64,000 bases of DNA from contig JAWBAK010000001.1 in assembly GCA_038997165.1 (NCBI GenBank), positions 338,337 through 402,336 on the forward strand. The letters are read 5' to 3'. Positions 36,353 to 59,421 of this stretch are shown piece after piece. Both the position numbers and the translations under genes were made by a program. The notes beneath the pieces were generated by a model. The model did no database searches and was not told the DNA's origin. It saw nothing but the letters and a program-made list of their open reading frames with translations. Origin of the DNA: Candidatus Aenigmatarchaeota archaeon (GTDB lineage Archaea > Aenigmatarchaeota > Aenigmatarchaeia > CG10238-14 > SpSt-28). How positions within the stretch are numbered: position 1 is the first letter of the stretch; each line of letters opens with the position of its first letter.

Positions 36353-36501
36353 GCCGGGGTCGCCTAGTGGACATGGCGGCGGACTTGAGTGATAGATTGG
36401 CGTGAAACTGATAAGAGATATAAAAAATGATGTGGGTGTCGAAATAAGAAAGAAATCCGCTGGGCTCTAAGCCCGCGTGGGTTCGAATCCCACCCCCGGC
36501 G
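36353..36501 (+). tRNA. tRNA-Ser (TGA) with 65-nt intron at 37/38 (36390-36454)
   Basis: GCGGA-CT-TGA-G|intron|A-TCCGC; long variable arm; G73. Confidence 0.92.
36389..36454 (+). ncRNA. Intron-encoded box C/D-like sRNA
   Basis: GTGATAG-12nt-CTGA-15nt-ATGATGT-12nt-AAGA. Confidence 0.6.
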
Positions 36502-43486: not shown

Positions 43487-43586
43487 GCCGGGGTGGCGGA
43501 GCGGTTTCACGCGGCGGGCTGCAGGGTTTTGCGATTTATGAGCGATAGAAACCCGCAGATCCCGGGTTCAAATCCCGGCCCCGGCT
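43487..43586 (+). tRNA. tRNA-Cys (GCA) with 26-nt intron (43525-43550)
   Basis: GCGGG-CT-GCA-G|intron|A-CCCGC; U73. Confidence 0.92.
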
Positions 43587-53747: not shown

Positions 53748-53874
53748 TGCGGGGGGTGGGATTTGAACCCACGACGGCTCTACGCCATCGGGTTTCTTAT
53801 CATTTATTCAAAGCTTAAGATTTTATATCTTTATCTTAAGCCCGACGCCCTTGGCCAGGCTAGGCGACCCCCGC
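53748..53874 (-). tRNA. tRNA-Leu (TAA) with 41-nt intron (53794-53834)
   Basis: TCGGG-CT-TAA-G|intron|A-CCCGA; long variable arm; CUUA/UAAG splice helix. Confidence 0.92.
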
Positions 53875-56515: not shown

Positions 56516-56564
56516 TCAGAAGTACTCCTTTTCATCATTATTCAGATGCGGCGGCATTCTTCAT
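56516..56564 (-). ncRNA. Box C/D sRNA
   Basis: ATGAAGA-ATGCCGCCGCAT-CTGA-ATA-ATGATGA-AAAGGAGTACTT-CTGA. Confidence 0.88.
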
Positions 56565-57942: not shown

Positions 57943-58082
57943 GCCGGGGTCGCCTAGCGGAAATGGCGCCGGCCTCGAGTTAAATGATAAGCTCTGGGGT
58001 AGCTGAAAGATAATGATGATTTTGTTATAAGAGAAAGCCGGTGGGCTCTAAGCCCGCGTGGGTTCAAATCCCACCCCCGGCG
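57943..58082 (+). tRNA. tRNA-Ser (CGA) with 56-nt intron (57980-58035)
   Basis: CCGGC-CT-CGA-G|intron|A-GCCGG; long variable arm. Confidence 0.92.
57984..58032 (+). ncRNA. Intron-encoded box C/D sRNA
   Basis: ATGATAA-GCTCTGGGGTAG-CTGA-AAGATA-ATGATGA-TTTTGTTAT-AAGA. Confidence 0.75.
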
Positions 58083-59322: not shown

Positions 59323-59421
59323 TGGGGCCGCTGGGATTTGAACCCAGGTTAACGGGTTTCCTCATTTTATCGGTGCTCCATTTCTGGAGCCCGCCGTCCT
59401 ACCTGGCTAGACTACGGCCCC
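59323..59421 (-). tRNA. tRNA-Trp (CCA) with 26-nt intron (59358-59383)
   Basis: GCGGG-CT-CCA-G|intron|A-CCCGT. Confidence 0.92.

Follow-up and report, generated by a model that had tools for sequence, protein, structure and literature searches.

An intron of tRNA-Ser(CGA) conserved across an order of Aenigmatarchaeota is a box C/D RNA with a predicted target in 23S rRNA

Within a 64,000-nt window of a Candidatus Aenigmatarchaeota genome, we analysed the intron-bearing gene of tRNA-Ser(CGA). The window corresponds to positions 338337-402336 of contig C1 in the genome that we call G000; other G-numbers denote genomes of relatives, and coordinates are those of the window unless they carry a prefix. 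By its sequence and layout, the intron is a real box C/D small RNA (sRNA), conserved across an order. With moderate confidence, we propose that the tRNA gene doubles as the host gene for a guide RNA that acts on 23S rRNA, in which the guide next to box D' (the D' guide) would direct 2'-O-methylation at the C equivalent to E. coli position 2441. In the genus of the window, the second guide, next to box D (the D guide), is probably a decayed or orphan guide.

The tRNA gene occupies 57943-58082 of the plus strand, on which all parts of the locus lie, and matches the Rfam tRNA model with 42.5 bits (gathering score 29); ARAGORN made no call at 57943-58082. Inspected by eye, the exons fold as a class II cloverleaf that has CU-CGA-G as its anticodon loop, a long variable arm and G as the discriminator. 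With CU-CGA-G supplied by the exons, the intron is placed at position 37/38. The 5' exon (57943..57979, positions 1-37), delimited by the Rfam match and by aligned orthologues, ends in CU-CGA-G, and the 3' exon (58036..58082) runs from A38 through the anticodon stem, the long variable arm, the T arm and the acceptor to the discriminator. Between them, the 56-nt intron (57980..58035) has a G+C content of 30%, compared with 73% in the exons.

Read from its 5' end, the intron begins with UUAA, followed by box C, AUGAUAA (57984..57990), which differs from the consensus RUGAUGA by an A in place of G6 and aligns with ATGAAGA or ATGATGA of relatives. Next come the 12-nt D' guide (GCTCTGGGGTAG / GCUCUGGGGUAG; 57991..58002), of typical length (~12 nt), the consensus box D' CUGA (58003..58006), the 6-nt spacer AAGAUA (58007..58012) and the consensus box C' AUGAUGA (58013..58019). 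The second half consists of a 9-nt D guide (TTTTGTTAT / UUUUGUUAU; 58020..58028) and the degenerate box D AAGA (58029..58032), with GAA at the 3' end. In the terminal motif formed by AUGAUAA and AAGA, both boxes keep their GA dinucleotides, and the pair between G6 of box C and C1 of box D is lost. The first-pass annotation of this DNA had listed the same succession of C, guide, D', C', guide and degenerate D; each of these motifs is present, and its span of 57980-58035 turned out to be exactly the intron. Among curated Rfam C/D families, only sub-threshold matches were found over 57980-58030 (snoPyro_CD, 15.4 bits with a cut-off of 45; sR35, 13.9 bits with a cut-off of 60).

To place the intron among its relatives, a covariance model was built from the intron together with the anticodon stem and searched, with a cut-off of E ≤ 0.01, against 118 genomes of the order. 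Matches were obtained in 39 genomes, with 86.8 bits (E 1.6e-21) for the window's own intron and 45-84 bits in 29 others. The full layout of C, guide, D', C', guide and D at position 37/38 is present in 33 of the 39, namely the 30 best matches (45-87 bits) and G036, G040 and G050. In this family, box C is followed by a guide of 11-13 nt, box D', a spacer of 3-7 nt, box C', a guide of 9-12 nt, box D, GA(A/U/C/G)A and the 3' strand of the anticodon stem. The recurrence of one layout at one place of the tRNA in 33 genomes bears out the C/D architecture that had been read from a single sequence. Box D' is CTGA in 31 of the 33 members, and the anticodon loop identifies the host as tRNA-Ser(CGA) in almost every member (UGA in G028, CAA in G113).

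Conservation of the gene was also visible by BLAST against 40 relatives: full-length orthologues came from all six remaining members of the genus and from three further families. Box sequences are at consensus outside the genus, namely ATGA(A/T)GA, CTGA, (A/G)TGATGA and C(A/T)GA. Within it, box C is (A/G)TGATAA (ATGATTA in G006) and box D is AAGA or GAGA. Since relatives have CAGA or CTGA in the alignment where the window has AAGA, the degenerate D is a true homologue of box D. All five pairs of the anticodon stem show compensatory changes on both sides. Beyond the order, a 151-genome sample of the phylum gave no strong matches, only three weak ones (27-33 bits) in other orders.

The target of the D' guide was sought in the organism's own rRNA. 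The cognate 23S gene is absent from the window, as had been said, and was located at G000 C1:322485-325518, 71 kb upstream of the tRNA-Ser(CGA) gene. The first-pass annotation had relied on a conserved archaeal 23S sequence, CUACCCCRGGG-AUAACAGR; the cognate 23S reads GCUACCCCGGGGAUAAUGGGUCC at this place, so that the first half agrees and the second does not, being AUAAUGGG rather than AUAACAGR. The D' guide GCUCUGGGGUAG faces the 23S segment CUACCCCGGGGA (C1:325034-325045), which is position 2550-2561 of the large-subunit (LSU) rRNA and, through an alignment of the G000 and E. coli 23S sequences, E. coli 2437-2448. Eleven pairs can form, nine Watson-Crick and two G-U. Counted from box D', they comprise seven contiguous Watson-Crick pairs followed by U-G, C-G, U-G and C-G, with a terminal G-A mismatch. 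The fifth guide nucleotide forms a G-C pair, and therefore the predicted methyl group falls on the C at LSU 2554 (C1:325038), whose aligned nucleotide in E. coli is 2441, just where the +5 rule had been said to put the first site.

The evidence that carries this assignment is comparative. The D' guide is identical or nearly so in all seven genomes of the genus, and its 3' end, G(G/A)GGUA, is retained in 30 of the 33 family members; at guide positions 8-11, it is mostly C and U that replace one another, and either can pair with the target's GGGG. For 17 genomes, both the intron and the 23S rRNA were assembled, allowing each guide to be compared with its own 23S (the 23S of G002, G003, G006, G024 and G026 is not assembled, and their guides stand outside this comparison). 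The 2441 site ranked first or second in 10 of the 17 and within the top 10 in 14. It was the best match in G004, G043, G036 and, after removal of a 31-nt hairpin insert that splits the site, G028, the second best in G000, G001, G005, G020, G109 and G008, and fourth to tenth in G054, G044, G032 and G110. The 23S was also scanned by alignment column in 14 genomes, each with its own guide. Here the 2441 site was the best of all, with a mean of 15.07; the next best column reached 10.5, and a place that we call site B (CUGUCCCAGGGC) 8.5. When one and the same permutation of positions was applied to all guides, 13 of 1000 permutations reached the observed 15.55 (11 genomes, one per close group, G028 excluded).

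Guide and target have also changed together. At guide position 6, a G stands opposite C2442 in all four genus genomes with an assembled 23S, and an A stands opposite U in ten others (G020, G110, G109, G054, G044, G008, G043, G032, G036 and, counted after removal of its insert, G028). Such a joint change in guide and 23S is hard to explain without pairing. A whole-genome scan of G000 found G+C-rich matches to the D' guide only at two 23S sites. Thus the cognate 23S is complementary to the first guide at CUACCCCGGGGA, and the comparative data favour this segment, as the first reading of the stretch had it. Two other kinds of candidate were rejected. A 16S target near CUAAUACCCCAUAGG has three mismatches in G000, and the best 16S match is weaker than the 2441 site in all six genomes with a 16S. 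The 'third site' matches in 23S that score highly in G008, G109, G056, G020 and G054, taken singly, fall in columns that are not homologous.

Several points weigh against an assignment to 2441. Shuffled versions of the 12-mer reach an rRNA match score of at least 24 in 86 of 300 cases, so that the match in a lone genome lies within chance, and in G000 site B outscores the 2441 site (28, reached by 10 of 300 shuffles). The members of the genus are kin, and the switch between G-C and A-U therefore amounts to about one evolutionary event. In G056, where the 2441 site ranks 37th, the guide GAGG faces CCCC in the 23S, placing A opposite C and breaking the covariation. The D' guides of G034, G040 and G050 do not fit the site, which ranks far down for the diverged guides of G034 and G040, and guide position 8 is mismatched in G020, G054 and G036. 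Finally, the terminal motif AUGAUAA / AAGA and the 9-nt D guide of the genus could weaken assembly of the ribonucleoprotein (RNP).

These points bear first on the possibility that the intron is a relic in the genus, with C/D-like boxes retained and no methylation guided, either because it is decaying or because it serves as a folding or protein-binding element whose D' part is held by splicing or structure. All seven genus members have degenerate terminal boxes (C and D) and a short, variable D guide, and the D' match, with its two G-U pairs, is not significant alone. We nevertheless regard a relic as unlikely: boxes C' and D' are at consensus and, like the D' guide, conserved throughout the genus while the flanking intron drifts, and the guide has changed together with the 23S, with G-C in place of A-U.

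Another possibility is that the D' guide of the genus acts on site B (G000 LSU 2118-2129, with a target nucleotide equivalent to E. coli 1994), instead of 2441 or besides it. In G000 all 12 positions can pair at this site (nine Watson-Crick and three G-U), the match is the top one genome-wide, and in G020 this site, too, has U at position 6. The pairing, however, needs G-U at guide positions 3 and 4, beside the target nucleotide, and across the order the homologous column averages far less than the 2441 site (8.5 against 15.07 in the scan above), most GAGG-type guides meeting CCC there with an A-C mismatch. On balance, we find a role of site B rather improbable and retain methylation at the equivalent of E. 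coli 2441 as the favoured reading of the D' guide.

The D guide fared differently. The first-pass annotation had described a double guide that pairs with two directly adjacent 23S segments, the second site lying near E. coli 2452. Directly 3' of the first target, the cognate 23S has AUAAUGGGU, and the 9-mer UUUUGUUAU can indeed be paired with it at eight of nine positions when G-U is counted; neighbouring sites are, moreover, often targeted by archaeal double guides, according to the available parts of PMC7994747. Only four of these pairs are Watson-Crick, though, the other four being G-U, one of them at the target nucleotide itself, with one mismatch. The score of 9 falls short of the 9-mer's own best rRNA match (16), which is itself equalled or exceeded by 209 of 300 shuffles. 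When both guides are aligned to the organism's own 23S, therefore, the D' guide is complementary and the D guide fails, and with it the adjacent double target.

Variation within the genus points the same way. Its D guides, 9-12 nt long, occur as UUUUGUUAU, UUUUGCUAU, GUAAAAUAUCA, ACAAAUAUUA, AUAAAUCUCAAA and AAGGUCGAUGUU, unlike the 23S, which is nearly identical at the place of AUAAUGGGU in the four members with an assembled 23S. Placed on the G000 23S at the 2452 position, the D guides of G002, G003, G004 and G006 score 1 or less, and that of G005 scores 6, at the edge of the scanned stretch. With box D reading AAGA or GAGA throughout the genus, methylation at both 2441 and 2452 by a true double guide is very unlikely.

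Outside the genus, the D guide is 10-12 nt long and fits other places in the 23S rRNA. We distinguish three types. Type I, ACGCUCUUGAU(U/G), found in G020 and G028, matches UAUCAAGGGCGC (~E. coli 2272-2283) at rank 1 with 10-11 contiguous pairs, including one or two G-U. Type II, (U/A)(A/U)CGUCGAU(G/U)UU, found in G043, G032, G044 and G040, matches CA(C/A)AUCGACGA (~E. coli 2475-2486) with 9-10 Watson-Crick pairs. Type III, UACAACGGAGA(U/A), found in G054 and G036, matches the 3' strand of helix 89 at rank 1 with 10-11 Watson-Crick pairs. The sites of types II and III lie ~40-60 nt from the D' target and those of type I ~165 nt. For the 10-nt D guides of G109, G110 and G056 and for the D guide of G008, no good 23S match was found. 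Read from these alignments of guides and targets, the D guide is an element that has been retargeted several times across the order; in some lineages, the genus of the window among them, it is orphaned or has decayed. A fixed D' guide combined with D guides that fit sites in domain V marks the intron family as a guide RNA of 23S domain V.

The 23S rRNAs of the order have peculiarities of their own around these sites. In G000 (L001, LSU 2557-2625), as in L040-L043 and L074-L095, the peptidyl-transferase ring departs from the usual consensus. It has GGGGAUAAUGGG where E. coli has GGGGAUAACAGG, with UG for CA at positions 2452-2453, and GUUGAUACGUAGAUGUCGG where E. coli has GUUUGGCACCUCGAUGUCGG, with changes at 2495, 2496, 2499 and 2501. 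Nearly all 23S sequences of the order that we inspected have UAAU instead of UAAC, and G005 has GUAGCUUUCGGCUC where the others have GUAGAUGUCGGCUC. Insertions are also present: the insert of G028 (L087) is a 31-nt perfect hairpin inside GCUAC/CUCGGGG, within the guide target; G032 (L084) and G040 (L081) carry an insertion straight after GGGGAUA; and in G020 (L043), besides further inserts, a long one that contains an open reading frame follows GGGGC of the P-loop region.

How the intron would be freed can be judged from the fold around its ends. The consensus fold keeps the anticodon stem, a 3-nt AAA bulge at the 3' splice site, of which the last A is A38, and the pairs C32-G, U33-A and C34-G. 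These three pairs are kept in all 30 aligned sequences and are invariant apart from two G-U exceptions. By eye, this looks like a relaxed variant of the bulge-helix-bulge, which in its canonical form has two 3-nt bulges around a 4-bp helix: in the window G faces A at the fourth pair, and past the 5' bulge the helix is weak. Within the splice-site helix, C34 and U33 pair with the G (58031) and the A (58032) of box D, respectively. Because box D is shared in this way, the helix and the kink-turn (k-turn) of the C/D motif presumably cannot form together, and the likely order of events is that cutting comes first and that RNP assembly takes place afterwards on the freed intron.

A single-sequence fold suggested quite another use of the guide. 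In the minimum-energy fold of the pre-tRNA, the anticodon loop pairs with the 5' half of the D' guide, and in most members guide positions 5-7 can face C32-U33-C34, as if the intron directed ribose methylation of its own pre-tRNA, for instance at C32 or C34, like the tRNA-Trp intron of Euryarchaeota; such self-targeting is extremely unlikely, since the pairing is not kept in relatives, position 5 on C32 gives a run of only four pairs in most of 32 members (six, with three G-U, in G000), the best ungapped matches of both guides to the mature host exons are weak and differ in place between genomes, and no complementarity of the tRNA-Trp type was found around positions 34 and 39 of the host tRNA-Ser for either guide.

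The proposed route with 23S as the target is as follows. The splicing endonuclease would cut the pre-tRNA at the relaxed bulge-helix-bulge, and the exons would be joined into a normal tRNA-Ser. The 56-nt intron so freed, probably circularised by RtcB as in other archaea, would then bind L7Ae, Nop5 and fibrillarin. The D' guide, beside the consensus C'/D' motif, could pair in trans with CUACCCCGGGG of the 23S (E. coli 2437-2447), just upstream of the peptidyl-transferase ring, and fibrillarin would 2'-O-methylate the C opposite the fifth guide nucleotide. The decayed half, with its 9-nt A/U-rich D guide and AAGA box, probably supplies only the second protein-binding motif. A search of sequencing runs with the stretch gave matches only in hot-spring metagenome DNA contigs and in no RNA run.

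The protein machinery for this route is encoded in G000, a 652-kb archaeal genome in four contigs with a G+C content of 24% (its rRNAs have 60-62%). Adjacent genes encode fibrillarin and Nop5 (Pfam Fibrillarin, 269.5 bits; Nop, 155.3 bits), and L7Ae (Pfam, 106.3 bits) and RtcB (579 bits) are also present. The splicing endonuclease EndA is a single frame of 398 amino acids with two tRNA_int_endo domains (C2:3278-3769, minus strand), and this enzyme may bear on the relaxed splice-site motif of the tRNA-Ser(CGA) intron.

Other tRNA introns of the window and of the order were inspected as well. The intron of tRNA-Ser(UGA) (36353-36501, plus strand) also contains a C/D-like RNA, which reads (G)UGAUAG, guide AUUGGCGUGAAA, CUGA, AUGAUGU, guide GGGUGUCGAAAU and AAGA. 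The core of its D' guide, UUGGCGUGA, is kept in all seven genomes of the genus, and its D guide varies. In G000, each of the two guides forms nine contiguous Watson-Crick pairs with the 16S rRNA, at small-subunit (SSU) positions 1362 and 921, respectively. SSU 1362 is the best rRNA match of the D' guide; for the D guide, SSU 921 scores 18, one below a 23S site at LSU 2616 (19). The tRNA-Ser(UGA) introns of G029 (L023) and G008 (L024) carry a guide containing AAGGAGGUGA, a sequence that we expect to pair with the 16S rRNA at its 3' end; the 16S of neither genome is assembled. A full C/D layout is present in the tRNA-Ser(GGA) intron of G021 (L104), and C'/D-like halves occur in the tRNA-Leu introns of G097 (L100) and G062 (L102).

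Three more tRNA genes of the window bear introns and are assigned by anticodon loop to Trp(CCA) (59323-59421, minus strand), Cys(GCA) (43487-43586, plus strand) and Leu(UAA) (53748-53874, minus strand); all three were also missed by ARAGORN. A strict box pattern gave no match in these introns; that of Leu(UAA) contains AUGAUAA, the C-box variant of the genus, and may hold half a C/D element. Over the whole G000 genome, the same pattern returned only three free-standing C/D genes. One free-standing consensus C/D sRNA lies at 56516-56564 on the minus strand, 1.4 kb from the tRNA-Ser(CGA) gene, and consists of AUGAAGA, 12 nt, CUGA, AUA, AUGAUGA, 12 nt and CUGA. Its first guide fits best to the 23S near LSU 353.

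From the order as a whole, a broader picture may be drawn, which we offer tentatively and at somewhat less than an even chance. Serine tRNA genes of the order would serve as hosts for rRNA-modifying guides, as an archaeal counterpart of intron-hosted small nucleolar RNAs (snoRNAs), with the tRNA-Ser(CGA) intron marking the 23S by the peptidyl-transferase ring and the tRNA-Ser(UGA) intron fitting the 16S best. Cutting of the pre-tRNA and RNP assembly would exclude each other and so tie the supply of guide to splicing, and the D' guide would have stayed fixed while the D guide moved among 23S sites and died in the genus of the window. If this is true, archaea, like eukaryotes with their snoRNAs, also carry ribosome-modifying guides in the introns of other genes, and tRNA splicing is linked to ribosome maturation in genomes of ~0.6 Mb with little room for separate sRNA genes. 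With one fixed and one labile guide, the intron family would offer a clean comparative series on the retention, retargeting and loss of guides. It would also mean that the C/D guide sets of such genomes are under-counted when tRNA introns go unsearched.

Among known systems, the closest is the intron of pre-tRNA-Trp. Before 2012, the only functional C/D sRNAs known from tRNA introns were, according to the papers cited here, those of tRNA-Trp. The tRNA-Trp intron, in Haloferax volcanii and as sR50 in Pyrococcus, is likewise a box C/D guide at position 37/38 and is described as acting on its own tRNA, guiding Cm34 and Um39 (PMC7994747 and PMC3326292, available parts, which describe the studies of Clouet d'Orval et al. 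2001 and Singh et al. 2004). According to the same parts of these papers, the Haloferax intron is released by the splicing endonuclease and persists as a stable circle, and many C/D sRNAs of thermophiles are circular too. Unlike tRNA-Trp, where both guides act on C34 and U39 of the tRNA itself, the host here is tRNA-Ser, no usable complementarity to the host exists, and the conserved guide fits 23S rRNA. A second relative is the 66-nt intron of elongator tRNA-Met in Nanoarchaeum equitans (Randau 2012, PMC3491384), shared features being the DPANN affiliation and a non-Trp tRNA intron with C/D elements. Its RNA accumulates as a stable C/D-like RNA with one mutated C box and one D box, and the available text names no target for it; the tRNA-Ser intron, in contrast, combines all four boxes (C, D', C' and D), is conserved across the order and has a target predicted in rRNA.

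With the free-standing archaeal double-guide sRNAs for 23S domain V, the intron shares a length of ~50-60 nt, guides of 12 nt (in the window, the D' guide) and the N+5 rule, as far as the available parts of PMC7994747 and of Lui et al. 2018 (PMC6009581) describe them. According to these parts, archaeal guides have their rRNA targets concentrated around the peptidyl-transferase centre, and where one sRNA has two guides, their sites are often no more than ~100 nt apart, a spacing matched in some relatives by the D-guide sites of types II and III. Unlike these sRNAs, the intron RNA lacks its own promoter and its own ends, would be made by tRNA splicing, and has a D box that overlaps the splice-site helix. 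The intron-hosted snoRNAs of eukaryotes and the dicistronic tRNA-snoRNA genes of plants (PMC7994747, available parts) likewise comprise an rRNA guide that rides on, and is freed from, another transcript; they depend on spliceosomal introns or on processing of the RNase Z/P type, whereas here a tRNA intron would be cut by the tRNA splicing endonuclease. In the literature searched, which did not cover most subscription journals or supplements, we found no description of a guide in a tRNA-Ser intron or of a tRNA-intron guide aimed at rRNA, in keeping with the remark in the first-pass annotation that a serine tRNA intron hosting a trans-acting rRNA guide was new. By this comparison, the parts and the chemistry are familiar, and what is new is the host and the relation between host and target, conserved across an order.

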